Source: a bacterium
GTDB taxonomy: Bacteria; Bacteroidota; Ignavibacteria; SZUA-365
DNA: 64,000 nt
Assembly (NCBI GenBank): GCA_020444325.1
Contig: JAHLLD010000001.1
Location: forward strand, 580,964 to 644,963
Direction: 5' to 3'
Notes under the pieces: model-generated
Seen by the model: the letters and a program-made list of their open reading frames with translations, nothing else
What the model was told of the DNA's origin: nothing
Databases searched by the model: none
Shown: positions 5,995 to 46,802 of the stretch, one piece after another
How the letters are laid out: each line of letters begins with the position of its first letter
Numbering within the stretch: the first letter of the stretch is position 1
Position numbers and translations under genes: made by a program

Positions 5995-8240
5995 CACGAC
6001 TTCTCGTCCGGCTGTTTTTCTTCGCACTGCTGCTGTTTCCCGCTTCTGCCTTCAGCCAGGGAGTGATTTCCGGCACAGTGCAGGAGGCTGAAAGCGGGGA
6101 AGCCGTCATTGGCGCGAACGTGATTCTCGCCGGCACCGGCAAGGGCGCCGCCACCAACCGTTACGGCTATTTCGCACTGGCCGGCATTCAGCCCGGCAGC
6201 TACACCCTGCGCATTTCGGCCGTGGGATATCGAACGGATGAAAGGGAAATCGAAATCACGAAAAGCGATGAAATTCGTCTTCTCGTTTCGCTGCAGCCTT
6301 CCGTTATCGAACTCGGTGCCGTTTCCATCGAAGCCACCAGGCAGGAAGCAGAAGCCCGCAGGCTCAGCTCAGTCGACGTGCCCATCGAACAGATCCTGCG
6401 TCTGCCCTCCCTTGGCGGTGAAGTGGACGTCTTCCGCGCCCTGCAGCTGCTGCCCGGCGTGCAGGCGGCCTCGGAGATTTCTTCAGGATTGTACATCCGC
6501 GGCGGCAGTCCCGATCAGAACCTCGTGCTTCTCGACCGCATGGTACTGTACAATCCCTCCCATCTTGGCGGTTTCCTCAGCACCTTCAATGCGGACGCCA
6601 TCAATAACGTCACCCTGGTAAAAGGCGCGATGCCGGCGGAGTACGGGGGACGCCTTTCCTCGGTCGTTGACGTCACGATGCGCGAAGGGGGACGCGATCG
6701 CATTCGCGGCGCAGGCGGCATCAGCATGATCGATTCCCGTCTGACGATTGACGGTCCGATCAACGAAGACATTACCTTCATGCTCTCGGGTCGCCGGGTG
6801 TACCTCGACTGGCTGGTCGACCTGATGTCGGATGATGCCTCGCTCAATTACTACTTTTACGACCTCGTGGCGAAGACGAATATCCGTCTCGGGGATAATG
6901 ATCGCCTGTTCTTCTCCGGCTTTTTCGGCCGCGACGTCATGGGCGAGCCTTTCGATGACGATGACGATTTCAATGTCAGCTGGGGAAACAGCGCCGGCAA
7001 TCTGCGATGGACGCATATTTTCGGCTCCAAGCTCTTCACCAACGTGTCGGCGGTGATCAGCGATTACCATTTCAGTTCGGAATTCCAGGAATGGGACGAC
7101 ACGCGCTTCAAGAGCATCTCCGGCATTCTGGACTATTCACTGCGCGTGGAAGCCGAGTACTTTCATTCCGCCGAACACAGCTTCAAGCTCGGACTCGAAA
7201 ACACCCTGCACACCTTCACCTCGGAAGCTTCCTCCGACCGCAGCGAGTTCACGGAATTCGATCCTCACCTTCCCACACATCGCGGCACGGAAGTATCGCT
7301 GTTCATGCAGGATGAGTGGAAACTCTCGCCGCAGTTCACGGCGCAGATCGGGGGACGCGCATTTTATTTCGACCGGGGACCCTATTTCCGCTTCGAACCG
7401 CGTCTCGCGGCCTTCTACACATTCGACAATGAGGTGACGCTCAAGGCGGCGTTCATCGGCGCCAACCAGTTCCTCCACCTCGTCACACGCAATGACATCA
7501 CCCTGCCGACCGACATGTGGTTTCCCTCCACTTCCAGTCTGCCACCGTCGTATTCCCTGCAGTATGTACTCGGGGCCAGCCGCGATTTCGACGACGGCAT
7601 GTACAGCGTTTCGCTCGAAGGATATTACAAGAGCATGAATAACCTGCTCGAGTTCCGCGACAACGCGTACTTCAGCATCTTCGCGCCGCTCGAGGAAGAA
7701 CTGACCGGCGGCGACGGACGCAGCTACGGTGCGGAAGTGTTCATTCAGAAGCGGAAAGGAAATTTCACCGGCTGGCTGGGCTATACCCTGGCATGGACCG
7801 ACCGCACCTTCCCGGAACTCAACGACGGGAAAACCTTTCCCCCCCGCTACGACCGTCGACACGATATCAGTCTCGTCCTCAACTACCGGCTCGGGGAGAA
7901 CTGGGAATTCACCGGTGTGTGGGTGTATGGTACGGGACAGGCGTTCACTTTTCCCGTCGCGCAGTACACGCTCGACATCAACGACGGTGTCAAGCTGCTG
8001 TATTCCGATCGCAACGGCTACCGTCTCCCCGCCTACCACCGCCTCGATCTGAATTTCAGTTACGGCTTCAAGTGGTTCGGGTGGGACTGGAAAGCCAGCA
8101 TCAATCTTTACAACACGTACAATCACCTGAATCCGTTCTCGCGCTATCTCGATTACGACTGGCAGACGGACAGCTGGAAGCTGAAACAGATCACGCTGTT
8201 CCCGCTGCTGCCGACCTTCGGACTCAGTTTCCGCTTCTGA
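5991..8240 (+). CDS. TonB-dependent outer-membrane receptor with an N-terminal carboxypeptidase-regulatory-like domain
   Basis: Signal peptide MTRLLVRLFFFALLLFPASAFSQG. GVISGTVQEAESGEAVIGANVIL...GSYTLRISAVGYRTDE is a CarbopepD_reg-like domain, followed by a plug region and a beta-barrel ending in the terminal Phe (...FGLSFRF). The start ATG overlaps the hflX stop (ATGA at 5991-5994). Confidence 0.8.
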   Translation: MTRLLVRLFFFALLLFPASAFSQGVISGTVQEAESGEAVIGANVILAGTGKGAATNRYGYFALAGIQPGSYTLRISAVGYRTDEREIEITKSDEIRLLVSLQPSVIELGAVSIEATRQEAEARRLSSVDVPIEQILRLPSLGGEVDVFRALQLLPGVQAASEISSGLYIRGGSPDQNLVLLDRMVLYNPSHLGGFLSTFNADAINNVTLVKGAMPAEYGGRLSSVVDVTMREGGRDRIRGAGGISMIDSRLTIDGPINEDITFMLSGRRVYLDWLVDLMSDDASLNYYFYDLVAKTNIRLGDNDRLFFSGFFGRDVMGEPFDDDDDFNVSWGNSAGNLRWTHIFGSKLFTNVSAVISDYHFSSEFQEWDDTRFKSISGILDYSLRVEAEYFHSAEHSFKLGLENTLHTFTSEASSDRSEFTEFDPHLPTHRGTEVSLFMQDEWKLSPQFTAQIGGRAFYFDRGPYFRFEPRLAAFYTFDNEVTLKAAFIGANQFLHLVTRNDITLPTDMWFPSTSSLPPSYSLQYVLGASRDFDDGMYSVSLEGYYKSMNNLLEFRDNAYFSIFAPLEEELTGGDGRSYGAEVFIQKRKGNFTGWLGYTLAWTDRTFPELNDGKTFPPRYDRRHDISLVLNYRLGENWEFTGVWVYGTGQAFTFPVAQYTLDINDGVKLLYSDRNGYRLPAYHRLDLNFSYGFKWFGWDWKASINLYNTYNHLNPFSRYLDYDWQTDSWKLKQITLFPLLPTFGLSFRF

Positions 8241-25846: not shown

Positions 25847-26051
25847 GCACAGGATACAGCCTACTCCTTCCACCGCCTTGGATCATCCGGATTCAGGAAA
25901 CGCCTGCCCTTTCTTACGTTGCCTCTCACCGATGCGTGGCGTATTTTCCCGCAGACGCTAATCCGCAACATGATTTTTTTACTCGCGCACATCGCCTGTG
26001 CAGCGGGAAGGAGTATTGTAATGCACCATGCATCCGAAAGTGGAGGGCGGT

Positions 26052-27170
26052 ATGTCTGTTGACAGTTCCTCCTCTCCACGCAGACTTATCATCTGCTGCG
26101 ATGGAACCTGGAATTCTCCGGGGAAAGGTGTGCAGCGGCTCGGAGAACGCGAGCAATGCACAAATGTCGTGAAAACCGTACGATCGATCGCGCCGTTGGA
26201 CGAACACGGCCAGGATCAGATCGTGTACTATGACAGTGGTGTCGGAACGGCGGGACTGTTCGACAAGTACGTCGGGGGATTTACCGGCCACGGAATCCGT
26301 GAGAACATCGAGCAGGCTTACCGCTTTCTTGCAAACAATTACAGGGACGGCGACGAAATATGGTGCTTCGGCTTCAGCCGGGGCGCGTATACCGTGCGCT
26401 CTCTCGGGGGATTGATCAATACCGTCGGACTCCTCCCAAAAGGATCCCTGAAGTTCTTTCCTCTTTTTTACAACTACTATCGCACCGCGAAATCCCGGCG
26501 CAAGGATCTGCCGGAATACGATGAGATCACCTCCATCATCGGCACGAACCGCAAACCCCCAATCACCTTCATGGGCGTGTGGGATACGGTGGGGGCTCTC
26601 GGAGCGCCGACGCCGCTGCTGGGACGCATTACGCGTTCATGGGTCGGCTTCCACGACACACGTGCAGGGAATATTCAGTACGCTTACCACGCGCTCGCGG
26701 TGGATGAGCTGCGCAAACCCTTCGCACCAAGTGTGTGGACCGAGAAGGACGATGTCTGCAAGGTCATGAAGCAGGTCTGGTTCGCCGGTGCGCACTCGAA
26801 CGTGGGCGGAGGCTATCTCGATTGCGGACTGTCGGATGGCGCCCTGATCTGGATGATGAACAACGCCACCCGGCATGGACTCCGCCTGCTCGATGACTGG
26901 ATGGAGCAGGCCGATCGCATCCAGGCGAATCCCGATGCGGAGATCGTCCATTCCTATAAACTGATGTACAGGATTTTCGGAGCGATTTTCCGCTGGCGCT
27001 ACCCGCGTCCCATCGGCGGCAAACACCGGGATGTGAACGGGACGCGGGTAAGCGGCTGCGAGGAATTCGTGCATGACAGTCTCCACTGGCGCGCGCGAAA
27101 GAACAAGCACACCGTCAATCCCCGGAACCTGGCCTACGGGATTGAACACCTCCCGGTGGACAAGCCCTGA
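26052..27170 (+). CDS. DUF2235 alpha/beta-hydrolase (Tle1-like phospholipase family)
   Basis: RRLIICCDGTWNSPG is the DUF2235 N-terminal signature. GFSRGA is a nucleophile-elbow GxSxG. Length is about 370 aa. An alternative start lies at 26028. Confidence 0.75.
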   Translation: MSVDSSSSPRRLIICCDGTWNSPGKGVQRLGEREQCTNVVKTVRSIAPLDEHGQDQIVYYDSGVGTAGLFDKYVGGFTGHGIRENIEQAYRFLANNYRDGDEIWCFGFSRGAYTVRSLGGLINTVGLLPKGSLKFFPLFYNYYRTAKSRRKDLPEYDEITSIIGTNRKPPITFMGVWDTVGALGAPTPLLGRITRSWVGFHDTRAGNIQYAYHALAVDELRKPFAPSVWTEKDDVCKVMKQVWFAGAHSNVGGGYLDCGLSDGALIWMMNNATRHGLRLLDDWMEQADRIQANPDAEIVHSYKLMYRIFGAIFRWRYPRPIGGKHRDVNGTRVSGCEEFVHDSLHWRARKNKHTVNPRNLAYGIEHLPVDKP

Positions 27171-31444: not shown

Positions 31445-33373
31445 GTGTTCCAGACACTCCGCGTATTCCGCGCCTGTGCCTTTCTGCTTTTGGTCCTCTT
31501 GTCCGTTTCCTCGGCGCAGCAGGACAGCAGCAGGACAGCGGACGCTGCAACGGACAGTCTGCAGACAGGGGGTCCCGGCAGCATTTCCCTGGGATTCGAA
31601 CGTAACGTCAACACCTTTCTCTGGGATCTGGGAGGAAATTACCGCTACGAAAATGGTCCCTGGCGTCTGACGGCGGACGAACGCTTTCAGCGCACGCTGA
31701 TACGCACCGACCGCAGTACCGTCAAAGATGAGCAGAGTTTTCGTCTCGACGCTTCACGCGACCTCGCACGCGATCTGGCGGTAACCACGTCTTTCTCTTC
31801 CTTCATTTTTTCCGACAATCGCGCACTGGGACTCAACGACCTCTCCACGAGCAAGGCTCTCGGGGGTGTTCGCTGGTCACCGCTCAGCGTGCTGGAAGTA
31901 GCACCGATGGCAGGGGTGAGCGTGGATAATCAGCAGGGAATCGAGGACATGGGATTCATGTACACGGGACGCGCGACGCTCCGCGACCTGTTTATCGGAC
32001 GCAGCATGGCACAGGGCGAACTGTATGCCTCAGCTGAGTACATCGATCCGCGCTTTCAGTCCGAACAGCGGGGCAGTGCCGAGCTGCTGGCCAACTTCGG
32101 TCCCTCAACCATGAACCATACGCAGCTCACCATACGTAACGTCCGGCGGGAATTCTACCTCGCGTATGATTCCACACTGGAGGCCCAGACAGGCATCGGA
32201 CACCCGATTGAATCGCGGGACGAACGCGTGGTCACACTCAGCAATACCCTGCGCTATCAGTTACTGGAGACGCTCGGACTCATTGCGTCGATCGATCTTT
32301 CCCAGCGTGATATCGCGCGTGCGCGACCGCACAACCGCGTGAATGACGAGAACCCCTTTTTCGATAACGACATCAGTGAATTCCACCTGAACGGATCGAC
32401 ACAGCTGATGTATGACAATGGAGACGGGAGTCGTGGAAGCTTTCGCATGGAATTCAACGAGCGGGATGAGCAGCACAGCATTGACCCGTTCGAAGGCGCT
32501 TCGACCGTCAGCATCGCACGGCAGGAACTGCTCGAGGAACAGAAAAACAACTCGATAGAGCAGACGCAGCTGTCACTGAATTTTTCGCAGGCCGTCAGCC
32601 GCAGCGATACGCTCTCACTCTCCGCATCGACTGTGAAAATGCAGTATGACACACCGAGTGAGGAAAACTACGATGATCGCGATGAGCTGTTCGTTCTTGC
32701 GGGCATCCGCTGGGTACACCGTTTCTCCCCGTATTTTCAGGCTTCGCTGGCCAGTGATATCAACTTGCGTCACACCGTATTCATCTTTTCCGAACGCAGT
32801 GCGAATAACACCTGGAACCGCGTCCTGCGCCTCGCACCGTCAACGGAATTGCGTCTCGGACGCGGTGTCGTGAGCCGCAACTCTGCGGAAGTCGTCGCGA
32901 ACTACACGGTGTATGATTTCGAAACCGCATCGCTGGCACAGCGCAGCTTTTCCCTGCGGCAGCTGACGCTGAGTGATTCGACGCTCATTCATCTCGGCAG
33001 CGATTACTGGGCGGAAATTCAGCTGCATATGCGCGTGTATGAACGCGGGGAGTTGCGCTGGTCGGCATTTACCGTGCGTCCCGTCCAGTTCTTCGATGAA
33101 CGAAGCATGTCGTTGTCGCTGCTCTGCCTGCGCGGAACCGTGCAGGCTTCGACAGGCCTGCGGCTGTTTGAGCAGCGCCGCTACCGGTATGACGGACTCG
33201 ACCGCGTGCGCAGCGGTCTTCTGCAGAGCCTGGGTCCAACCGCCAGCCTGCGGCTGCGTATGGCCGACAGCGCCGATATCGTTGCTGAAGGGTGGTATCA
33301 GCTGACGCGGGAAGACGGCGGAGAGACACGCAGCACGCCGAATCTCTCGCTGCGGCTTTTCTGGAATCTGTAA
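31445..33373 (+). CDS. Hypothetical outer-membrane beta-barrel protein
   Basis: Signal MFQTLRVFRACAFLLLVLLSVSSAQQ. It has alternating amphipathic beta-strand character throughout. 642 aa. Confidence 0.5.
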   Translation: MFQTLRVFRACAFLLLVLLSVSSAQQDSSRTADAATDSLQTGGPGSISLGFERNVNTFLWDLGGNYRYENGPWRLTADERFQRTLIRTDRSTVKDEQSFRLDASRDLARDLAVTTSFSSFIFSDNRALGLNDLSTSKALGGVRWSPLSVLEVAPMAGVSVDNQQGIEDMGFMYTGRATLRDLFIGRSMAQGELYASAEYIDPRFQSEQRGSAELLANFGPSTMNHTQLTIRNVRREFYLAYDSTLEAQTGIGHPIESRDERVVTLSNTLRYQLLETLGLIASIDLSQRDIARARPHNRVNDENPFFDNDISEFHLNGSTQLMYDNGDGSRGSFRMEFNERDEQHSIDPFEGASTVSIARQELLEEQKNNSIEQTQLSLNFSQAVSRSDTLSLSASTVKMQYDTPSEENYDDRDELFVLAGIRWVHRFSPYFQASLASDINLRHTVFIFSERSANNTWNRVLRLAPSTELRLGRGVVSRNSAEVVANYTVYDFETASLAQRSFSLRQLTLSDSTLIHLGSDYWAEIQLHMRVYERGELRWSAFTVRPVQFFDERSMSLSLLCLRGTVQASTGLRLFEQRRYRYDGLDRVRSGLLQSLGPTASLRLRMADSADIVAEGWYQLTREDGGETRSTPNLSLRLFWNL

Positions 33374-33438
33374 CGAGGATTTTCTACTTTAATGATCATA
33401 TTTCCATTGAGGAGACCGCGACCCTGAGCAAGCCCGTG

Positions 33439-33849
33439 ATGACAAAATCCATCAGCATCCCAAGCGTACGCAGCAATATCAATCTGGTCGAGGCGTTCAT
33501 TCTGGAAATCCACGATGCCATGACCCTTGAGGAATCCGTACTCGACCGCATCATGATATCGATTACGGAAGTCGTCAACAACGGTATCATTCACGGCAAC
33601 AAATCCGATCCGGAAAAGAAAGTCCACATCAGCTGCAGCTGCTATGAGGATCGTGTCGACTTTGTCATTCGCGATGAAGGGACAGGCTTTCACCCGGAAG
33701 ACATCCCCGACCCGCTCGCAGAAACCAACCTGCTCAAGGAAGGCGGGCGCGGTGTGCTTATTGTCCGTTCGATGATGGACTCCGTTGAATTCCATCAAAC
33801 CGACGGAGGGATGGAAGTCCATCTCTCCGTGCGACGCTCAGAAGACTGA
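33439..33849 (+). CDS. Anti-sigma regulatory factor (RsbW/SpoIIAB-type serine kinase, HATPase_c)
   Basis: ITEVVNNGIIHGN (N-box) and DEGTGF...GGRGVLIV (G-boxes) are typical of GHKL anti-sigma factor kinases. The true start is within the longer listed ORF. Confidence 0.7.
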   Translation: MTKSISIPSVRSNINLVEAFILEIHDAMTLEESVLDRIMISITEVVNNGIIHGNKSDPEKKVHISCSCYEDRVDFVIRDEGTGFHPEDIPDPLAETNLLKEGGRGVLIVRSMMDSVEFHQTDGGMEVHLSVRRSED

Positions 33850-33882
33850 GTCCCAGCAACCCCACCGAACACAGGAATCGTT

Positions 33883-34915
33883 CATGCCCCATCGCCAGTA
33901 TCTGCCCGGAGACGAGACCCGTCTCATGACCATTCAGCGCTATATCGCGGAAGAAGAGCGCCTTCATCCGGATGCGACCGGTGAATTCTCGACACTGCTT
34001 CGCAATCTTGCGCTCGCCGTGAAGATCGTATCGCGTGAAGTGCGCCGGGCAGGACTCGTCGATATACTCGGCCGGGCCGAAACCACCAATCCCAGCGGCG
34101 AGGATGTGAAGAAACTCGACGTGTTCGCAAATCAGATGATTATCAACGCCATGGAAAGCGGCGGACAGCTCTGTGTCATGGCTTCGGAAGAAAATGAATC
34201 CGTCATCCCCATCCCGGAGGAATTTCCCTGCGGACATTATGCCATGCTGTTCGATCCACTCGACGGTTCTTCTAATATAGAAGCGAATGTCACCATCGGA
34301 ACGGTATTTTCCATTTTCCGCCGTGTCACCGGCGGCAAGCAGGGAAACGAGGCGGATGTTGTGCAGCCCGGCATCAAGCAGGTCGCCGCGGGATACATCA
34401 TGTACGGATCCAGCACCATCCTGGTATTCACCACCGGCAATGGTGTGCAGGGCTTTACGCTCGATCCCACCATCGGCTCCTTCCTCCTCTCCCATCCCAA
34501 TCTTACCATTCCGTCACGGGGACGCATCTACAGCGTCAACGAAGGAAATCGTAAAACCTGGGATGAAGGTTTTCAGCGCTACATCGACTTTCTTCAGACA
34601 CCGGACAGCGCTGCGGGGCATCCCTACAAGGCGCGTTACGTCGGTTCGATGATTGCCGATGTGCATCGCACGCTGCTGTATGGCGGCGTCTTTGCCTACC
34701 CGGCCGACAGCGGGAGTCCGAACGGAAAACTTCGCCTTATGTATGAAGCCAATCCCATGGCCTTCATCATCGAACAGGCGGGCGGACGTGCATCCGACGG
34801 CAGTAAGCGCATTCTGGAAATCGAACCCACGGACATCCATCAGCGCACACCTCTGCTTCTCGGAAGCCGGGAAGATGTGCTCGAAGCAGAGGACTTCATC
34901 GCCGGCCGGCGCTGA
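33883..34915 (+). CDS. fbp: Fructose-1,6-bisphosphatase class 1
   Basis: Near-collinear with E. coli Fbp from my recall: GLVDILG, LDVFANQ, LFDPLDGSSNIEANVTIGTVFSIFRR, KQVAAGYIMYGSSTILV, GKLRLMYEANPMAFIIEQAGG. Alternative starts at 33785 and 33928. Confidence 0.9.
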
Positions 34916-34934
34916 CGTGGCAAGCACATCCATC

Positions 34935-35726
34935 ATGAAACTGCAGACGTCATTTTCGATCCCGGTACTGCTCCTGCTCACCTGCACCCTGTTTCTCACC
35001 GCAACCGGACCGGTGCACGCGCAGCGCTCTGCAGGTGACCGGGCGAATATCGATCCCATGTTTCTCATCGACATGCCTGTCGCAGGCATACTGCCTGCTA
35101 CCTCCGGCGCCGTGGAAACGACATTGTATCCGAACGGCGGTGTGCTGGCATGCTTTACGTACGGACTCGTGACCAACCTGAACGTGGGGCTTTCCTTTGG
35201 CGGGACGAACCTGATCGGCAGCGGCGGCATCACGTGGAACAACCTGCCCGGTATCAGCGTGCGTTATCGCGCGCTCGAAGAGAGTATGCGTCGTCCCGCC
35301 ATCGTCGTCGGCTTCGACAGCCAGGGACATGACGGGTGGCTTCCGGGTGCGCGACAATACGTGATGAAATCCCCCGGCTTTTACGTCACCGTCAGCAAAA
35401 ATTACCAGCTCTACGGGACCGTCAGTTTTCATGGCGGTGTGAACTACACGCTGGAACGGCACGATGAGGACATGGATCCCAACATTTTTATTGGCGCGGA
35501 GAAATCCATCGGTCCCATCGCCTCCGCCCTTCTCGAATACAATTTTGCCTTCGATAACGACAAAGACCGACGCGGATTTTTCAACGGCTCGCTGTCCACC
35601 GGCGTGCGTTTATCCACAAACATCGGGTTCAATGTGGATATCATGCTGAAAAATCTGCTCACTTCGGAATTCGGGTATAACAAAATCATCCGTACCATAC
35701 GCCTGCAGTACGTGCGGTATCTCTGA
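34935..35726 (+). CDS. Hypothetical secreted protein
   Basis: Signal MKLQTSFSIPVLLLLTCTLFLTATGPVHAQ. The listed ORF extends 94 codons upstream and overlaps fbp. Confidence 0.5.
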   Translation: MKLQTSFSIPVLLLLTCTLFLTATGPVHAQRSAGDRANIDPMFLIDMPVAGILPATSGAVETTLYPNGGVLACFTYGLVTNLNVGLSFGGTNLIGSGGITWNNLPGISVRYRALEESMRRPAIVVGFDSQGHDGWLPGARQYVMKSPGFYVTVSKNYQLYGTVSFHGGVNYTLERHDEDMDPNIFIGAEKSIGPIASALLEYNFAFDNDKDRRGFFNGSLSTGVRLSTNIGFNVDIMLKNLLTSEFGYNKIIRTIRLQYVRYL

Positions 35727-35942
35727 GCCTGTGGCTGCTCCTCGCCTGAATCATTGTCCTTTATTTCGCCCAGCCCCTGTCCTCTCTGGAGGTCACTTCG
35801 GTGGGACTTTCCTCATTCATCGAAATAATGTAGCTTTTCCGTGTTGTATAAGGTCAATTTTCATGTCCATGGTGGCATGATTACGGCACGAATTTTGTTC
35901 TCTATACAGGTAGAGAATACATCGAAACCGATGAGGTGTGTC

Positions 35943-36971
35943 ATGAAACGAACAAGAAACCTACTCATTGCGCTTGCATCTGTTGCGCTGCTGTTTGGAA
36001 CATCCGGCTGCTACACACAGATCGCCGTGCGCGACGACTATCCCCGCTACGAGGATTACGGCTACGCCGATTATTCTGAGACCTATGAAGATACGCTCGG
36101 GAACGTCGTCACAAACAACTATTATTATGATAGTTATCCCCGTACCTCCGCGTACTTCGACTTCTATTACCCCGTACGCTGGGGTTCATACTGGTCGATG
36201 AATTACGATCCCTGGTATGGGAGTTACTACAGTCCTCCCTACGGTGGATACTACACGCCGTACTGGGGATATTCTTCGTACTACAGTCCCTTCTGGTACG
36301 GTCCCTCCTACTACTGGCATTCCCCGTATCACAGCCACTGGGGCTATTACGGCTGGGGTGGCGGTTATTATGGCGGTGGCTACTACGGCGGATCCGCTGT
36401 TCTCACGACCCGGCACACGGGTTCACGGGTACGCACGACAGGCGTCACACGCAGCCTGACTTCCAGCCGCTCGAGAAGTGCCGCTGGCACCACACGTTCA
36501 CGTGTCTCGCGGGTCACGAATGACGGACGCAGCTCCGTGCGTTCGTCCGCAACGCGCAGCAGCCGCAGCAACACCTATGAGCGCCTGAACAGGAGCACGA
36601 GAGAATCGGTTAACAGCTCGTCGAGAAGCAGCTCTCGCTCGGCGTATGAGAGGGCGCGGAGTTCTTCCGGCAGTTCACGCAGCAGCAGCACAAGCCGCTC
36701 ACGATCGAGTTCCGGAAGCTCCAGGGAATCCACGCGTTCATCATCCCGTTCGGGTTCGTCAAACCGCAGCTACACACCGTCTTCGCGCTCACGTTCGAGC
36801 AGTTCTTCGGGACGCAGCTATACGCCTTCTTCGCGTTCGAGCAGAAGCTCATCCGGCAGCTCCCGCAGCTACTCCCCGCCGTCGCGCAGTTCCAGCGGCA
36901 GCAGTGGACGCTCCTCGTCATCCGGCAGCAGCCGTTCTTCTTCCGGTGGCGGCCGCAGTCGTTCCCGTTAA
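35943..36971 (+). CDS. Lipoprotein with a Tyr/Gly/Trp/Pro-rich segment followed by a C-terminal Arg/Ser-repeat (RS-like) low-complexity tail of about 180 aa
   Basis: MKRTRNLLIALASVALLFGTSGC is a lipobox. Then ...YYYDSYPRTSAYFDFYYPVRWGSYWSMNYDPWYGSYYSPPYGGYYTPYWGYSSYYSPFWYGPSYYWHSPY...GGGYYGGGYYGG, followed by RSxxSSRS repeats running to the stop. Confidence 0.55.
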   Translation: MKRTRNLLIALASVALLFGTSGCYTQIAVRDDYPRYEDYGYADYSETYEDTLGNVVTNNYYYDSYPRTSAYFDFYYPVRWGSYWSMNYDPWYGSYYSPPYGGYYTPYWGYSSYYSPFWYGPSYYWHSPYHSHWGYYGWGGGYYGGGYYGGSAVLTTRHTGSRVRTTGVTRSLTSSRSRSAAGTTRSRVSRVTNDGRSSVRSSATRSSRSNTYERLNRSTRESVNSSSRSSSRSAYERARSSSGSSRSSSTSRSRSSSGSSRESTRSSSRSGSSNRSYTPSSRSRSSSSSGRSYTPSSRSSRSSSGSSRSYSPPSRSSSGSSGRSSSSGSSRSSSGGGRSRSR

Positions 36972-37061
36972 GCCATTTGAAGCCGCTGTAAATCAAACAA
37001 TGGAATTGCGGCCGTTTCGCAACAGCGATACCTCATTGAAACGGTCTTTATGGAGGAACAC

Positions 37062-38576
37062 ATGAAACGCGCATTGTCGATCTTTATTTTTCTCATGCTG
37101 GCCTGGTCAATGCAGGCCCAGGCGCAGGTTATTGAAGACGCCCTGCGGCTCTCGCACACCGGTACCGTGGTCGGTACACGGAGCGCCGGCATGGGAAATG
37201 CCTTTATCGGACTCGCCAACGACGCAACCGCGCTGTACTGGAATCCCGCGGGACTCGCGCAGCTGCGTATGCGGGAGTTTTCGGTCGGACTGGCGAACAT
37301 GGGTTACAGTAATGACGCCTCTCTCTTCAGCGTAACCGAAAACGGCGACAACAGCCAGATGGTACTCACCAACCTGAATTTCGCCGTGCCTTTCCCTGTT
37401 GTCCGCGGCAGCTTCGTTGTCGCAGCCGGCTACAACCGCATCCTCGACTACAATGGTGCCATGATGCTGGATGTATACAACCCGGAAAGCTCAATCCAGG
37501 CGTCGCTGTTCAACGAGGATTACGATCTGGATTTCGCCTGGAATCTCGGGCTGGAAGACGTGATTGTCGATTCGCTGCTCAACGAGAATCTCCCCGGCTG
37601 GCTGGCCATTCCCGTGGCCAACCGTGTTCAGCAGACCATCGACCAGTATGAAGAAGGCGGTCTGAATCAGTGGTCCATCGGCGGCAGTATGGAAGTCGCC
37701 CAGGGTGCCATGGTCGGCGTCTCGCTCAACGTCCTCAGTGGTTCTTACCGCTACGAGCGCACATTCATCGAAACCGATGTCAATAATGTGTGGCAGGGTG
37801 CCATCCTCGGTATCAATCCCGATCCCAATAGTACGAACGATATCCTGCGTACTGATTTCGATCGTCTCGATCTCTATGAGGAGATCAACCAGGACCTCTC
37901 CGGTTGGAACATGCGTTTCGGTTTCCTGTACAATTTCCGTGACAAGGCACGATTCGGCGTATCCATTCAGACCGCAAGCAGCATCACCGTGAACGAGGAT
38001 TATTACAAATCCGGCGACAGCTATTTTGCCGACGGTTCCGGTGAAGGCTACGACCTCACGTTCAGCAACCACAATTACGAAATCATCACCCCGGCAGTGT
38101 ACTCTTTCGGTGCCTCTGTCAATCCGGTGGAATCCGCCACCATAGCGGCCGATATCGAACTCGTGGATTATTCCAATATCGAATTCAATGCCAGCAACGA
38201 CCTCGACGCCTTTGCACTGAGCGAATTCAACCGCAGTATTCGTCAGGAGTTTCGTTCGACGAACAACTTCCGCGTTGGCGGTGAATTCCGCGTGCCCAAC
38301 ACCGGTCTCGCACTGCGGGCCGGTTTCGGATATCGCTTCTCACCCTACGAAGCCGATGAAGGAAAAAGCGAGTACAACGTGACGACACTCTCCGCGGGCG
38401 TCGGCTACACCTTTGAACATAATATTTCCCTTCAGGCCGCCTACGTGCACTCAAGCCTCGAGACCTTCAGCTACCCGTACATCGATCCGGATACCGATGT
38501 GCCGGAAAGCGCATTTACCGTCAACCAGGAAATTGCGGTTTCCCAGCTCATGTTCGGACTGGTTTACCGCTTCTGA
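37062..38576 (+). CDS. FadL/TodX/OMPP1-family outer-membrane beta-barrel protein (possibly PorV-like)
   Basis: Signal MKRALSIFIFLMLAWSMQAQA. GTRSAGMGNAFIGLANDATALYWNPAGLA matches the FadL N-terminal signature (G.G.A..G.A..DA.....NPA). It ends ...LMFGLVYRF with a terminal Phe. Confidence 0.65.
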   Translation: MKRALSIFIFLMLAWSMQAQAQVIEDALRLSHTGTVVGTRSAGMGNAFIGLANDATALYWNPAGLAQLRMREFSVGLANMGYSNDASLFSVTENGDNSQMVLTNLNFAVPFPVVRGSFVVAAGYNRILDYNGAMMLDVYNPESSIQASLFNEDYDLDFAWNLGLEDVIVDSLLNENLPGWLAIPVANRVQQTIDQYEEGGLNQWSIGGSMEVAQGAMVGVSLNVLSGSYRYERTFIETDVNNVWQGAILGINPDPNSTNDILRTDFDRLDLYEEINQDLSGWNMRFGFLYNFRDKARFGVSIQTASSITVNEDYYKSGDSYFADGSGEGYDLTFSNHNYEIITPAVYSFGASVNPVESATIAADIELVDYSNIEFNASNDLDAFALSEFNRSIRQEFRSTNNFRVGGEFRVPNTGLALRAGFGYRFSPYEADEGKSEYNVTTLSAGVGYTFEHNISLQAAYVHSSLETFSYPYIDPDTDVPESAFTVNQEIAVSQLMFGLVYRF

Positions 38577-38600
38577 CACAGGACGACACACCTGCATCAA

Positions 38601-38636
38601 CCCCGGGGCACTCACTGGCCGCGGGGTTTTTGTTTT
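38601..38636 (+). terminator. Candidate rho-independent terminator
   Basis: ccccggggcactcactggccgcgggg followed by tttttgtttt, immediately after the stop of the FadL-like gene. Confidence 0.4.
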
Positions 38637-38738
38637 CACGGCATTTACAGTGAGTCCACTTCATGCATTGCTTTATAATGCGTCTCCCACTATATTGCCT
38701 AGCTTGTATATCTGTTCTTTTTTCGTGGAGTATTAAAC

Positions 38739-40844
38739 ATGGGAATGATGACAAAAATGCGCGACAATGCGCACGTATTCATCATCGCTTTTATTGTCGT
38801 CTTCGTCGCCTTTTGGGTGATCAGTGATGTTGATATCGGTTCCATCATGCAGGGCTCTGCCAACGAAATTGGTAACGTGGGTGGGAAGTCCATCACGTAC
38901 CAGGAGTACCAGGCAGTAGTCGACCGCGTCGCCGAGCAGCGCCGCCAGCAGAATGAGGGACGTGAGCTTACAGAAAACGACTTCATGCAGATCCGTGAAC
39001 AGGTCTGGAATGATTTCGTCACGCAGTCCATCGTCGAAAATGCCATTGAGGAATTCGGCATCACGGTTTCCGATCAGGAAATCACGGACTGGGTGTGGGA
39101 CCTGAACAATCCCCCCGAACAGCTCGCACAGTATTTCAAGGACAGCACGGGCCGTTTCAACGCGCAGGCTTATGAGCAGTTCCTTCGCAATCCAGGTCCG
39201 GAAAATCAGGAGGCGCTCATCGCCGTTGAGCAGCAGCTCAAATCAGAACTGCTCCGCTCGAAGCTGACCAATATTCTCACCTCCTCTGTCATTGTCTCCG
39301 AAGATGACGTTCGCTGGAAATACATCGAGAATAATATCGATTTCAACGTCAGCTACGTGTTCTGGGATCCGCGCGTGTTCGCAGCCAGCGACACGAGCGA
39401 ACCGACGGATGCAGAATACCAGAGCTATTACGAGAAGAACAAGGATCGCTTCAAAATCGAAGACATGCGTGTTCTCAAGTATGTGCTCTTCCCGGATGCA
39501 CCTTCCAAGAGTGATACCGCTGCCGTGCTCAACGAGCTGAACAACATCAGCAAGATGGTGAGCGAAGGTTCGGATTTCCTCGAAATGGTTGAGCTAAACT
39601 CCGAGACTCCGTATGATTCCACCCAGTGGTCGACGCGTGAGAACGTCCCTGAGCAGGTTGCGGACAAAGTCTTCGATGTCCCTGTCGGCACTGTCGTCGG
39701 TCCCATCCCCAACGAGACCGGCCTGTCACTGTACAAGGTCATGGACTCCCGCACAGGCGATCAGAAGCTCTACAGCGCAGCGCACATTCTTTTCCGTACC
39801 GACGGCGGACAGGATGAGGCAGCGCAGAAAGCCAAGGCAGAAGAGGTGCTCGCCAAAGCAAAGTCGGGTGAGGATTTCGCAAAGCTCGCCGCGCAGTATT
39901 CCGAAGAACCGGGTGCCGCTGACCGCGGGGGGAAACTTCCCTGGTTCAGCAAGGGCCGCATGGTTCCGGAATTTGAAAACGCCGTCATGAATGCGCGTGC
40001 CGGACAGATCGTCGGTCCCGTCAAGACGCAGTTCGGCTACCATATCATCAAGGTGAACGGTTCATCCAACCGCGAAGTCAAGCTTGCGGAAATCCGGATG
40101 TCCATTCGCGCCGGCTCCCGTACCATGGAAGAGATTTTCGAGAAAGCGCGCAATTTTGCGTACTTCGCCAACGAAAACGGGTTCGAGCAGGAAGCCAATG
40201 CGCAGGGACTGCAGGTGCAGGAGACCGCGGAATTCGCGAAGCAGACTGGCTCGTATGTCCCGGGTATCGGTACAAATCCCGCCCTTATGCGCTTTGCTTT
40301 CGACAACAGTGTCGGTGATATCAGCGAGGTACATCGCGCCAGCAACGGCTATGTCGTCGCCATGCTCGCAGACACGCGCGATGCCGGCTATCGTCCGCTC
40401 GACGAAGTCCGCGATCAGATTCGCGCCCAGGTAATTTATGAGCGTCAGGTTGAAAAGACCTTTGACATAGCAAAGCAGCAGGACGCTGGTGGAAAGTCAC
40501 TTGACGCGCTTGCGAACAGCAGCCCCAATCTCAACGTGACCACACCGCCGCCATTCAAACTGCAGAACGGCGTTCCCAATATCGGTCCCGATCAGGCTTT
40601 CATTGGAAAGATGCTCAAGCTCGAGCCCGGCAAGTCGACTGCTCCGTTCCGCGGCCTGCGTGGTATCTATGTTGTCCGCCTGCTCTCGAAATCTGATTTC
40701 GACGACACGGCATACAAGGTGAAGAAAGATGAACTGCGCAAGCAGGAGCTTTCCTCTCTGCAGAACGAATTTGTTCGTTCCTGGATCGAAGAAAAGCGTG
40801 ACGATATCGACATCGTCGATAATCGACATAAATTTTTCCGCTGA
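38739..40844 (+). CDS. ppiD: Membrane-anchored periplasmic chaperone / peptidyl-prolyl isomerase PpiD (SurA-like)
   Basis: N-terminal TM anchor (VFIIAFIVVFVAFWVI). Parvulin domain AAHILFRTDGG...GGKLPWFSKGRMVPEFENAVMNARAGQIVGPVKTQFGYHIIKV. 701 aa. Confidence 0.8.
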   Translation: MGMMTKMRDNAHVFIIAFIVVFVAFWVISDVDIGSIMQGSANEIGNVGGKSITYQEYQAVVDRVAEQRRQQNEGRELTENDFMQIREQVWNDFVTQSIVENAIEEFGITVSDQEITDWVWDLNNPPEQLAQYFKDSTGRFNAQAYEQFLRNPGPENQEALIAVEQQLKSELLRSKLTNILTSSVIVSEDDVRWKYIENNIDFNVSYVFWDPRVFAASDTSEPTDAEYQSYYEKNKDRFKIEDMRVLKYVLFPDAPSKSDTAAVLNELNNISKMVSEGSDFLEMVELNSETPYDSTQWSTRENVPEQVADKVFDVPVGTVVGPIPNETGLSLYKVMDSRTGDQKLYSAAHILFRTDGGQDEAAQKAKAEEVLAKAKSGEDFAKLAAQYSEEPGAADRGGKLPWFSKGRMVPEFENAVMNARAGQIVGPVKTQFGYHIIKVNGSSNREVKLAEIRMSIRAGSRTMEEIFEKARNFAYFANENGFEQEANAQGLQVQETAEFAKQTGSYVPGIGTNPALMRFAFDNSVGDISEVHRASNGYVVAMLADTRDAGYRPLDEVRDQIRAQVIYERQVEKTFDIAKQQDAGGKSLDALANSSPNLNVTTPPPFKLQNGVPNIGPDQAFIGKMLKLEPGKSTAPFRGLRGIYVVRLLSKSDFDDTAYKVKKDELRKQELSSLQNEFVRSWIEEKRDDIDIVDNRHKFFR

Positions 40845-40932
40845 TGCCTCACGGCGCGGTGGAACTTTTCGCAGCCGCTTCCGATTTTGTGGAGTAGCAC
40901 GCGATTAGCCTGACCACGAACTGAGGAACAGA

Positions 40933-41676
40933 ATGCGCATCCCCCGGTGGAAGTACACGACAGTTACGAAACACCGGGGGATGCTGTTTTTTATCCTCAT
41001 CCCTCTGCTCGTCTCCGGCGTCGCAACAGCGCAGGAGGGGACAGACGCGCAGCACAGGCTCCATTCCCTCTCCTTCTTCGGCGGCATTGTCGAAGACTCC
41101 CAGATCTTCCTCTCTCCCCAGTCACCGGATCCGGTAGAACGTCAGGCAAACACGGATATCGGCAGTACCTTCGGATATGGACTCAGTTACCGGTACCGCC
41201 TTTTTTCCACCGTGGCGCTGCAGCTGCACGGGGAATACGTGCACGCACGCAGTTCGTATCGCGATCAGGTGGGTACGAAGATTGAAAACGGCTACGATGT
41301 CTGGATCGCGGAAGTCAGTGGGATGTTCATGCTACCGTTCAGCAGCAGAAGATTTGAAATGTTTGTCGGTGCAGGGGCAGGGATGTATGTCGGACGCCGC
41401 GTGTATGTGATTGCGGATGTATCTTCCGAAACGGCCTCTTCACTCCCCGCTTTTGGTATCCACGTTCTGGTCGGTGCCGAATATCTGTTGACCGATCATC
41501 TCGGACTGCGTGCCGATATCGTCTTTCGTGATCCACAGATGTCGGTGGAAAACCGCTTCCCGCTGTCCACGGTACAATCCAACGGCGTTGCCTACCCGTT
41601 GGAGACCTCCCCGTTTCTCTCCCACGTAAATCTCAACGGGAATGTGTATGCGATCGGGATTTCCTGGCACTTCTAG
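40933..41676 (+). CDS. Small outer-membrane beta-barrel protein (OmpW/porin-like)
   Basis: Signal ...MLFFILIPLLVSGVATAQ. About 230 aa with alternating hydrophobic strands. C-terminal ...YAIGISWHF. Alternative start at 40981. Confidence 0.5.
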   Translation: MRIPRWKYTTVTKHRGMLFFILIPLLVSGVATAQEGTDAQHRLHSLSFFGGIVEDSQIFLSPQSPDPVERQANTDIGSTFGYGLSYRYRLFSTVALQLHGEYVHARSSYRDQVGTKIENGYDVWIAEVSGMFMLPFSSRRFEMFVGAGAGMYVGRRVYVIADVSSETASSLPAFGIHVLVGAEYLLTDHLGLRADIVFRDPQMSVENRFPLSTVQSNGVAYPLETSPFLSHVNLNGNVYAIGISWHF

Positions 41677-45350: not shown

Positions 45351-46802
45351 GTGAATAACTCCTCGCCCATGAACGTTGCAACCGAGAATTCTGCCGCCTC
45401 CGCATGGAGTGCATGCCTGGAATTCATCAAACCGCAGATCAAATCCCTTACATTCAAAACCTGGTTTGAACCCATCCTGCCCACCAGTCTGCAGAGCGGA
45501 CTGCTGACGGTAGAGGTTCCCAGCACCTATTTCTACGAATGGCTCGAAGAGCATTTCTTCGACCTCATTCAGGCAGCATTGCACGAGGTTCTTGGAGACG
45601 AGGCCAGACTGCAGTACGCGGTGAAAATTCCCAAGGATGAGAAGCTTTCTCCCGCCGTACAGCATAATCCGTATCCAACGGGGGCAACCGGTGGAGCGGC
45701 AACCATGGGCGCGCAGAATGGTGAAATGCGACATATGCGTTCCGATTCTGCCCCGCGGCGTGATCCATTCGTTACCAATCTCAATCCGAAATTCACTTTC
45801 GACAGTTTCATCCGCGGCGATGGCAATCAGTTCGCGCGCGCAGCCGCACTCAATGTCGCAAACAATCCGGGCGAAACCGCATTCAATCCCCTCGTGCTGT
45901 ACGGGGGTGTAGGACTCGGAAAGACGCATCTGATCCAGGCGATCGGCAACTACGTTTCGATGAACAATCCCCAGAAACGGGTCTACTACGTCAGCAGCGA
46001 GAAATTCACCATCGACTTCGTCGAGGCCATCGAGAAAAACAACACCATTGAATTTTCGAATTTCTATCGCAGCATGGATGTGCTCATTCTCGATGACATT
46101 CAGTTTTTCTCCGGGAAGGAAAGAACGCAGGATACCTTTTTCCACACCTTCAACACGCTGCATCAGCTCAAGAAGCAGATCATTCTTTCTTCCGATCGTC
46201 CGCCCAAAGACCTGGTCGGACTGGATGAGCGTCTGATTTCACGCTTCCAGTGCGGACTCACCGTTGATGTGCAGCCGCCTGATCTGGAAACGCGCATCGC
46301 CATTCTGCGTAAAAAAGCGGACGGCGATCACATAGACATTCCGCAGGAAGTAATAGAGTTCATCGCCTCGAACGTCAAATCGAACATTCGCGAACTCGAG
46401 GGCTGCTATATTGGACTGATCGCGCGCCATACGCTTGAACAGTGTCCCCTCGATGTCAATCTCGCAGAAAAGGTTCTGCGCAACGTGATTGATTCGGAAA
46501 AGAAAGATATCACGGTAGAACAGATACAGAAAATGGTGGCGGATCACTTCAAAATCCCCGAGAATTCGTTGCGCGCCAAAACCCGGAAGCAGGAAATTGT
46601 GCTTCCACGCCAGGTGGCGATGTATCTTTCAAAGAACCTCACGCGGGCTTCGCTGAAAACCATTGGACTGCACTTCGGTGGACGAGATCACAGCACCATT
46701 ATCCATGCGTGCAAAACCATCGAGCGCAGTATTGCCAGTGATGACTCACTGCGTATGCATGTGGAAAAACTGGAAAAACAGATTTCCTATATTTCGCGCT
46801 GA
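45351..46802 (+). CDS. dnaA: Chromosomal replication initiator DnaA
   Basis: Walker A GGVGLGKTHL, AAA+ core, and a C-terminal DNA-binding domain (...LPRQVAMYLSKNLTRASLKTIGLHFGGRDHSTIIHACKTIE). Confidence 0.9.
   Translation: MNNSSPMNVATENSAASAWSACLEFIKPQIKSLTFKTWFEPILPTSLQSGLLTVEVPSTYFYEWLEEHFFDLIQAALHEVLGDEARLQYAVKIPKDEKLSPAVQHNPYPTGATGGAATMGAQNGEMRHMRSDSAPRRDPFVTNLNPKFTFDSFIRGDGNQFARAAALNVANNPGETAFNPLVLYGGVGLGKTHLIQAIGNYVSMNNPQKRVYYVSSEKFTIDFVEAIEKNNTIEFSNFYRSMDVLILDDIQFFSGKERTQDTFFHTFNTLHQLKKQIILSSDRPPKDLVGLDERLISRFQCGLTVDVQPPDLETRIAILRKKADGDHIDIPQEVIEFIASNVKSNIRELEGCYIGLIARHTLEQCPLDVNLAEKVLRNVIDSEKKDITVEQIQKMVADHFKIPENSLRAKTRKQEIVLPRQVAMYLSKNLTRASLKTIGLHFGGRDHSTIIHACKTIERSIASDDSLRMHVEKLEKQISYISR

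Follow-up and report, generated by a model that had tools for sequence, protein, structure and literature searches.

In a window of 64,000 nucleotides (nt), the whole stretch of DNA analyzed here (positions 580,964 to 644,963 of contig JAHLLD010000001.1, assembly GCA_020444325.1, from a bacterium of the Ignavibacteria lineage SZUA-365), we focused on the open reading frame (ORF) at 35943..36971, which encodes a predicted lipoprotein of extreme amino acid composition. We favor the tentative reading, which we hold somewhat short of probable, that this outer-membrane lipoprotein, which is conserved and disordered almost throughout, serves a two-barrel module of the outer membrane as its dedicated partner (cargo or subunit), the candidate barrels being encoded on either side of the lipoprotein. 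The near-obligatory linkage of the lipoprotein gene to one of these barrel genes is the main clue to function and had been overlooked in the initial annotation of this DNA, as had the invariant Cys-Tyr-Thr-Gln at the mature N terminus. The features on which the argument draws are given below (positions are those of the window; aa, amino acids).

34935..35726, forward strand: upstream gene for a secreted outer-membrane β-barrel of 263 aa, with 12 strands in its AlphaFold2 model
35943..36971, forward strand: lipoprotein ORF, 342 codons plus stop, ATG start
35943..36008, forward strand: signal peptide, aa 1-22, with the lipobox residues T-S-G before Cys23, read from the sequence
36009..36020, forward strand: mature N terminus Cys-Tyr-Thr-Gln, aa 23-26, the proposed docking motif, with C, Y, and T invariant in the alignments
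36021..36134, forward strand: acidic, Tyr-containing N-block, aa 27-64, in which a β-hairpin (aa 44-60) is the sole predicted ordered element
36135..36395, forward strand: aromatic low-complexity block, aa 65-151 (Y, W, G, P, and S), assigned by composition and predicted to be disordered
36396..36971, forward strand: polycationic Ser/Arg tail, aa 152-342 plus stop, ending in GGGRSRSR and predicted to be disordered
36764..36887, forward strand: three copies of R-S-Y-[TS]-P-[SP]-S-R-S, with the Ser of each S-Y at aa 276, 292, and 309
37050..38576, forward strand: downstream partner gene for a FadL/Toluene_X-superfamily outer-membrane barrel of 508 aa, assigned by Pfam match

The N terminus of the ORF product, MKRTRNLLIALASVALLFG, combines a basic n-region with a hydrophobic h-region, and the signal peptide and lipobox, MKRTRNLLIALASVALLFGTSG, lead directly into the Cys of a T-S-G-C lipobox and then YTQ; residues 2-21 form a helix (the signal peptide) in the AlphaFold2 model. 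We read this as a type II signal peptide, which would make the protein a lipoprotein processed by signal peptidase II. The initial annotation had described a lipoprotein in which a Tyr/Gly/Trp-rich block precedes a strongly basic Ser/Arg tail, had called this composition very atypical, and had pointed to outer-membrane proteins, a FadL-like one included, encoded nearby; inspection of the sequence and of the neighboring genes bears this out, and the composition can be put into numbers. Residues 166-342 of the tail are 47% Ser and 20% Arg (a Ser:Arg ratio of ∼2.3:1), with 36 Lys and Arg against 5 Asp and Glu. The maximum of Ser plus Arg per 100-aa segment is 76 in the lipoprotein versus 27 in the next-best ORF of the 64-kb window, and the maximum of Tyr plus Trp per 60-aa segment is 26 versus 13. 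The composition is an extreme outlier, far beyond chance. Disorder prediction, which had been proposed as a check, was done with AlphaFold2 and the family alignment and gave a mean predicted local distance difference test score (pLDDT) of 45.8; outside the signal-peptide helix and one small hairpin (strands at aa 44-49 and 55-60, pLDDT of about 68-77, containing V-V-T-N-N-Y-Y), the scores stay in the disordered range, with values below 50 in the aromatic block and in the tail. The lipoprotein is thus modeled as almost wholly unstructured. Scans with Pfam and NCBIfam found no family and no domain in it.

Extreme low complexity of this kind, and the ORFs that overlap the tail in another frame (36646..37065, forward strand) and on the opposite strand (36610..36996), would suit the reading that the ORF is an artefact or non-functional, whether as an assembly error in a repeat, as non-coding DNA, or as rapidly evolving junk. 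The DNA of the tail, however, holds no tandem repeat array: Tandem Repeats Finder reports one 19-nt feature only, the direct repeats amount to no more than three copies of 25 nt and three of 17 nt, all imperfect, and the codons are mixed, with all six for Ser and all six for Arg used in the ORF. Because the tail DNA is non-repetitive and draws on all of these codons, the repeat misassembly about which the initial annotation had worried is excluded. Further, the frame and architecture are identical in hundreds of distant genomes, synteny is conserved, and the proportion of nonsynonymous differences (pN) lies well below that of synonymous differences (pS). The conservation data reject this reading, to which we give a negligible probability. 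The two overlapping ORFs (139 aa on the forward strand and 128 aa on the reverse strand) are shadow ORFs of low-complexity sequence and not genes.

The initial annotation had also likened the tail to the arginine/serine-repeat (RS) domain of eukaryotes, and a nucleic-acid or splicing-type interaction module would share with it a superficially similar Ser/Arg composition. This comparison did not stand. Although the tail contains 29 RS and 21 SR dipeptides, strict alternation never exceeds 5 residues, and the tail is rather a Ser-rich chain with Arg spaced every few residues; neither an RNA recognition motif (RRM) nor any other Pfam domain is present, and with its predicted cleavable lipoprotein signal peptide the protein would leave the cytoplasm. 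Neither of the two features looked for in a eukaryotic-type RS domain, long alternation on the one hand and an RRM with an intracellular location on the other, was found, and we consider the analogy superficial and this reading very improbable. Eukaryotic SR-protein RS domains and FUS-type domains combine Ser/Arg-rich and Tyr/Gly-rich disorder, and Tyr-rich with Arg-rich segments are the classic sticker pairing in phase separation. Unlike these domains, the window protein has no RS alternation, RRM, or RGG motif and is predicted to be secreted and lipid-anchored, and the likeness is compositional only.

To place the protein in a family, as the initial annotation had proposed, we used a word-indexed protein search, which returned 45 homologues (best identity, 45%) with an architecture common to all, and a profile built from 26 of these was scored against 1.84 billion cluster representatives (clusters at 50% identity). 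At E ≤ 1e-3 the profile matched 3243 representatives, of which 1113 reached E ≤ 1e-10 and 93 reached E ≤ 1e-30; nearly every match was full-length, at 300-400 aa. In their source databases, the members are always named “hypothetical protein”; Pfam and NCBIfam scans of nine homologues identified no family, the sole match being TonB_C in one fusion protein; a profile search of solved structures with the lipoprotein gave low-complexity matches only (mL77 and RYBP) and no chain of the β-barrel assembly machinery (BAM); and no relevant paper came up in a literature search for lipoproteins of this kind or for disordered lipoproteins linked to FadL. By these searches, the family appears to be large and to have no Pfam, NCBIfam, or literature name. 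A Flavobacterium protein (P0038) with a marginal match (E = 2.4e-4) and no linked FadL-like gene was not counted as a member. In the closest metagenomic homologue (P0001; L001, 6001-7317), the database gene call begins 106 codons too early, and the real start is the MKRTRT before the lipobox. The fusion protein, P0031 from a metagenome, joins a TonB_C domain (Pfam E = 3e-20) to the aromatic block and Ser/Arg tail of the family, implying that the module can be joined to N-terminal parts of more than one kind.

The 180 sequences in hand comprise 159 lipoproteins, which we call type A, and 21 sequences of a second kind, type B, described below. The lipobox consensus of type A is L-[ST]-G-C, with the Cys present in 159/159, and is followed by Tyr (158/159), Thr (159/159), Gln (130/159), and then a hydrophobic residue; C, Y, and T are invariant in both homologue alignments (A1 and A2). 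Next come an acidic N-block of 32 ± 10 aa with a net charge of −6, an aromatic block of 102 ± 16 aa that is 39% Tyr, Trp, or Phe, and a basic tail of 183 ± 24 aa with a net charge of +28.5 (24% Ser and 22% Arg plus Lys), and at least two of the last four residues are Arg or Lys in 145 of the 159 proteins. In these blocks, it is size and charge that are conserved rather than sequence. The low-complexity architecture is therefore a shared one, and the suspicion that it might be a local expansion or fast-evolving junk is countered by block layout, lengths, and charges that are kept across hundreds of distant homologues and by the low ratio of nonsynonymous to synonymous substitution rates (dN/dS) in the tail.

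This ratio and the underlying conservation were determined by comparison with close relatives (loci L008, L009, L010, L080, and L001). The N-block is the most conserved part (70-78% identity), the aromatic block is about 50-60% identical, and the tail is 40-58% identical, or 86% in the closest relative, L008; indels in the tail are many, but all are in frame, and the tail end GGGRSR[ST]R is conserved. The dN/dS of the tail (Nei-Gojobori) is 0.14 versus L008 (188 codons), 0.26 versus L009, and 0.26-0.48 across more distant relatives; that of the adjacent FadL-like gene is 0.17. The tail is thus under purifying selection and is not junk. The tail of the window protein carries three copies of the short motif [RK]-S-Y-[ST]-P-[PS]-S, which coincide with the 25-nt direct-repeat family D1. 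In family tails the motif is ∼10-fold enriched (97 observed versus 9.2 ± 3.0 in composition-preserving shuffles) and is present in 73/181 proteins, and Pro is 5-fold enriched at the second and third positions after the Tyr.

The association with the downstream barrel gene emerged from the loci around the homologues. In five diverse metagenomic loci, an orthologue of the FadL-like gene follows the homologue in 5/5, with 26-53% identity over the full length. A genome scan with the FadL-like alignment, keeping one genome per species, gave 80 loci, which span Ignavibacteria, Ignavibacteriota, metagenome-assembled genomes (MAGs) of Bacteroidota, Calditrichota, KSB1, Zhuqueibacterota, Latescibacterota, and Gemmatimonadota, the closest being an uncultured Ignavibacteria MAG (80% identity). 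With a strict filter, a lipoprotein gene lies directly 5′ of the barrel gene in 57 of these 80 loci. With a relaxed filter, applied to 91 loci (87 fetched, three type B loci added later, and the window), a C-Y-T aromatic lipoprotein adjoins the barrel gene in 78. Most of the non-matching loci are contigs that end early or filter misses, and only one of five inspected misses (L062) had no candidate. By gene order, the lipoprotein gene is tightly coupled to one specific FadL-like barrel gene.

The partner barrel matches Pfam Toluene_X (PF03349) with 63.4 bits against a gathering score of 29.7 (E = 1.7e-17), and its matches among solved structures are FadL, TodX, TbuX, and BamG, the best being BtBamG of B. 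thetaiotaomicron (9hiv_F; 35 bits). By the curated cut-offs, it is not BamG, PorV, or PorQ. The NCBIfam BamG equivalog scores 61.4 bits against a cut-off of 250 (orthologues, 51-97 bits); PorV_fam scores 43.8 against 90 and T9SS_OM_PorV 17.3 against 250, with similarly low values for the orthologues; and PorQ is below the curated NCBIfam cut-offs. The partner barrel is a separate lineage of the FadL superfamily.

BamG itself offers a precedent. This FadL-like barrel binds the highly conserved lipidated N terminus of the surface lipoprotein BamH, an end that is wedged between strands of the barrel, and its paralogue BamG2 shares an operon with BamH2, the paralogue of BamH (PMC12578637, PMC12611786). 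The system described here is similar in that a 14-stranded barrel of the FadL family goes with a lipoprotein that has a highly conserved lipidated N terminus, in that the genes can adjoin, and in its range within the Fibrobacterota-Chlorobiota-Bacteroidota (FCB) superphylum. It differs in that BamH is folded, lies at the cell surface, and carries an acidic export signal, whereas the window protein is predicted to be disordered and has no such signal, and in that the partner barrel falls under the equivalog cut-off and coexists with BamG in Bacteroides. The two genes could in principle be a divergent BAM accessory pair, with the barrel as the local BamG and the lipoprotein replacing BamH: BamG is the best match among solved structures and the top NCBIfam match, the gene for a PpiD/SurA-like chaperone comes next in the clade of the window, and an Omp85 gene is near in L006. 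Yet the equivalog scores are far below the cut-off, the BtBamG match is barely ahead of those to TbuX and FadL, and the lipoprotein has no folded domain like that of BamH (a carbohydrate-binding-like scaffold domain), as judged by AlphaFold2 disorder and the solved-structure profile search. Further, the Bacteroides member of the barrel family has no phmmer match to any solved chain, BtBamG included, yet fits the subfamily profile over its full length, so that Bacteroides carries this barrel in addition to BamG. We therefore regard the accessory-pair reading as improbable and did not class the lipoprotein as a BamH; its conserved N terminus and the adjacency of its gene to a barrel gene would fit a BamH-like way of working rather than BamH membership.

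The type B relatives extend the linkage to gut bacteria. These 21 of the 180 sequences come from Bacteroides, including B. fragilis (WP_220392185.1), and other Bacteroidota, and have an ordinary signal peptide, a conserved mature N terminus (D-D-L-Y-F-[VI]-P), and an extra conserved domain of ∼130 aa, followed by the aromatic block, Ser/Arg tail, and basic end as in type A; the hairpin motif V-[VT]-N-N-Y-Y is common to both types. The type B gene lies directly 5′ of a Toluene_X gene in 3/3 loci examined, and the partner barrels fit the profile of the window barrel over their full length with 86-200 bits. Many members of the B. fragilis cluster P0357 are partial (∼200 aa), a sign that the gene is often interrupted by assembly breaks and hence is probably under-represented or truncated in draft genomes.

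Other lipoproteins beginning with C-Y-T were seen in the same loci. In Latescibacterota and Gemmatimonadota, a lipoprotein of ∼210 aa is encoded 3′ of the barrel gene; it begins with C-Y-T-V-L directly after the Gly of the lipobox, is Tyr/Gly-rich, and has no Ser/Arg tail. Its block is rich in (Y-G-G)n, and its C-terminal Y-V-P-P-G-Y-E-L-V-S-T-R is conserved (L071-L087, at about 5300-6150 in each locus). It represents a sister family with the C-Y-T N terminus in common. Many Ignavibacteria and Calditrichota loci have a second, smaller C-Y-T-[VI] lipoprotein encoded between the large lipoprotein and the barrel. In four Calditrichota loci (L004, 7002-7616; L065, ∼3375-3974; L068, ∼3252-3962; L077, ∼3061-3945), this smaller protein, which begins with C-Y-T-V-I after Gly, has a conserved CxxCH that may bind heme, whereas the smaller C-Y-T-[IV] lipoprotein of Ignavibacteria has no CxxCH motif.

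The third gene of the proposed module, 34935..35726, encodes a protein 100% identical to the NCBI entry “hypothetical protein KQI65_02495” and has 188 homologues at E ≤ 1e-5, one of which is named “YjbH domain-containing protein” by NCBI. Its AlphaFold2 model (pLDDT 78) has 12 strands, and its top Foldseek matches in the PDB are a designed 12-strand barrel, FapF, OmpG, and KdgM, with template modeling scores (TM-scores) of 0.4-0.5. Several of the homologues score 24-28 bits against Pfam YjbH (gathering score 24) but cover only positions 10-126 of 658, that is, the N-terminal barrel. We conclude from the models that the protein resembles FapF and the N-terminal part of YjbH. The gene was found in 58/91 loci, lying 5′ of the lipoprotein gene in Ignavibacteria, directly 5′ of the FadL-like barrel gene in Latescibacterota, and downstream in KSB1.

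Two known systems export a disordered polypeptide with the help of such a barrel or have been proposed to do so. First, YjbH/GfcD consists of an N-terminal 12-stranded barrel of the FapF family and a C-terminal barrel with a lateral aperture, modeled as an exit gate for a lipid anchor, and GfcA/YjbE, a short, natively unstructured Ser/Thr-rich protein from the same operons, is proposed to be exported through GfcD (PMC8346858, PMC11494523, PMC8592465). Here, in a possibly similar arrangement, a hydroxyl-rich protein predicted to be unstructured is co-encoded with a 12-stranded barrel that may be of the FapF/YjbH kind and with a putative lateral-gate barrel, and the cassette looks like a split version of the YjbH/GfcD logic. 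The differences are that the two barrels are separate here, that the lateral-gate barrel is of the FadL family and not the C-terminal barrel of GfcD, and that GfcA is ∼100 aa, Thr-rich, and not known to be a lipoprotein, whereas the window protein is much larger and predicted to be lipid-anchored. Homologues of GfcB/YjbF, GfcC/YjbG, and Wza/Wzc/Etk were not seen beside the cassette, whose neighbors (FBPase, a HATPase_c_2 protein, PpiD, and other outer-membrane proteins) depend on the lineage. Second, in the FapF-FapC system for secretion of functional amyloid in Pseudomonas, a 12-stranded barrel likewise serves an unfolded low-complexity polypeptide, and FapF is among the top structural matches. 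The likeness is generic (the TM-scores above and ∼11% identity), and the window lacks any further fap genes. The presumed substrate here is predicted to be lipid-anchored and is not an amyloid repeat protein.

The comparison with GfcA also raises the reading that the Ser-rich tail is an acceptor for dense O-glycosylation or phosphorylation, so that the lipoprotein would form a lipid-anchored, proteoglycan- or phosphoprotein-like coat. The Ser content of the tail, the enrichment of S-Y-x-P-P in family tails, and the presence in the cassette of a barrel like the N-terminal part of YjbH agree with this, as does the suggestion that GfcA is modified and exported via GfcD (PMC8592465). However, no glycosyltransferase, kinase, Wza/Wzc, or GfcB/C homologue conservedly adjoins the cassette, given its lineage-dependent neighbors. 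The Bacteroidota O-glycosylation motif, D-[ST]-[AILVMT], does not seem to be a feature of the tail. We give such a modified coat only an outside chance.

Taking the partner hypothesis further, we propose that the lipidated Cys-Tyr-Thr-Gln end and the hairpin dock on or in the laterally opening FadL-like barrel, as the BamH N terminus does on BamG, and that the barrels would help to bring the unfolded chain to the cell surface or to keep it there, in analogy to FapF, an exporter of unfolded polypeptide, and to GfcD, in which a pore is combined with a lateral gate for lipid-anchored polymers. Once exposed, the aromatic block and the polycationic tail could bind anionic partners such as lipopolysaccharide, capsule, extracellular DNA, or mineral surfaces, in the manner of a sticky tether or brush. 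We lean weakly toward surface exposure because both FCB-group precedents bind their partner extracellularly and because the 12-stranded barrel is of an export-associated kind.

Several points weigh against this proposal. First, the likeness of the 12-stranded barrel to the FapF fold is generic at these TM-scores, the copy in the window has no Pfam match of any kind, and many Calditrichota loci have no such barrel gene within 4 kb. Second, the type B proteins have no lipid anchor, and handling of a lipid by the barrel therefore cannot be universal. Third, the lipoprotein export signal (LES) of Bacteroidota, taken as at least two acidic residues in the six positions after the Cys, is found in 0/159 homologues (148 have no acidic residue and 11 have one), nor does the window protein, with C-YTQIAV, carry it, which under the known rule argues against surface exposure.

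This last point is also the first argument for the main rival explanation, namely that the lipoprotein is a periplasm-facing subunit whose long polycationic chain, extending inward, would either bind peptidoglycan or anionic lipids as a tether or else gate or regulate the channel. Type B fits this explanation in having only an ordinary signal peptide and no known signal for secretion across the outer membrane, the TonB_C to which one relative joins the aromatic block and Ser/Arg tail is a periplasmic domain, and the kept tail length (183 ± 24 aa) would suit the bridging of a fixed distance. On the other hand, the precedents in the FCB group, BamG-BamH and PorV-cargo, bind their partner extracellularly, and the linked barrel, similar to FapF and the N-terminal part of YjbH, is of the export-associated kind. 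We consider a periplasmic tether or gate possible but on the unlikely side. The boldest form of the partner hypothesis is an undescribed outer-membrane pathway in which the FadL-like and FapF/YjbH-like barrels jointly export a disordered protein and anchor it at the surface, a polypeptide-handling “split GfcD” that would build an adhesive or protective brush of block-copolymer type (acidic, aromatic, and polycationic). We regard this as speculative and rather unlikely as stated; its range would take in Ignavibacteriota, Bacteroidota (including gut Bacteroides), Calditrichota, KSB1, Latescibacterota, and Gemmatimonadota.

Two further comparisons bear on how a disordered, charged chain might work at the outer membrane. 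RcsF of Enterobacteria, a lipoprotein threaded through OmpA, OmpC, or OmpF, engages the lumen of the barrel with a disordered, positively charged linker, but the linker is short and RcsF has a folded signaling domain; RcsF is not known to have a dedicated barrel gene or to be related in sequence to the lipoprotein family. CotG and CotB of Bacillus, caddisfly silk, and sandcastle-worm cement are extracellular structural proteins with Ser-rich basic repeats, often phosphorylated, and Tyr/Gly-rich segments for cohesion or adhesion. Neither CotG/CotB nor the aquatic bioadhesives are known to be homologous to the family, and we saw no linked CotH-type kinase.

Elements that may govern expression of the lipoprotein gene lie in the intergenic region upstream of it.

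35885..35898, forward strand: sigma-54-type −24/−12 promoter-like element GGCACGAATTTTGT, conserved in the intergenic alignment of close relatives
35933..35938, forward strand: Shine-Dalgarno-like GAGGTG, 5 nt 5′ of the ATG at 35943, invariant in close relatives

The sigma-54-type element lies 45 nt 5′ of the start codon at 35943. The pattern GG[CT]A[CT]-N5/6-TTG[CT] occurs at an equal relative position in 25/73 family genes versus 1.4 ± 1.2 in random segments, and in L006 the genes for a histidine kinase and a sigma-54 activator are directly upstream. Expression is probably sigma-54-dependent in many lineages. A scan for sigma-70 promoters and intrinsic terminators was uninformative, and an Rfam scan of 33000-41000 found no family.

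In the wider neighborhood, 31445-33373 encodes a secreted protein of 642 aa that neither Pfam nor NCBIfam matches and that probably belongs to the large proteins of the outer membrane; conservation upstream of the cassette is confined to close relatives (L001, L009-L012, and L080), in which the genes for a HATPase_c_2 anti-sigma-type kinase (33415-33849) and FBPase (33785-34915) are conserved beside the 642-aa gene. After the FadL-like gene, the clade of the window has the gene for the PpiD/SurA-like periplasmic chaperone (38739-40844) and a further small barrel gene of OMP_b-brl type (40933-41676), which together make a run of envelope-biogenesis genes. The dnaA gene at 45351-46802, ∼8 kb downstream, places the window probably near the replication origin. 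Farther upstream, a Tle1-like phospholipase, of a family of type VI secretion effectors, is encoded at 26028-27170.

If the proposed partnership is correct, the lipoprotein would stand for a large uncharacterized family (more than 1000 clusters at 50% identity) for which neither Pfam nor NCBIfam has a model, and for an outer-membrane module of two or three genes that is conserved in phyla dominant in sediments, soils, and the human gut. Because B. fragilis, which is genetically tractable, has a non-lipidated version of the protein encoded beside an orthologous barrel, the hypothesis lends itself to direct testing there. For FadL-like barrels of the FCB group, it would add a third protein-docking role, after PorV and BamG. 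Further, it would provide a bacterial lipid-anchored protein that is disordered over almost all of its length and in which selection would act on length, charge pattern, and short motifs instead of on a fold.

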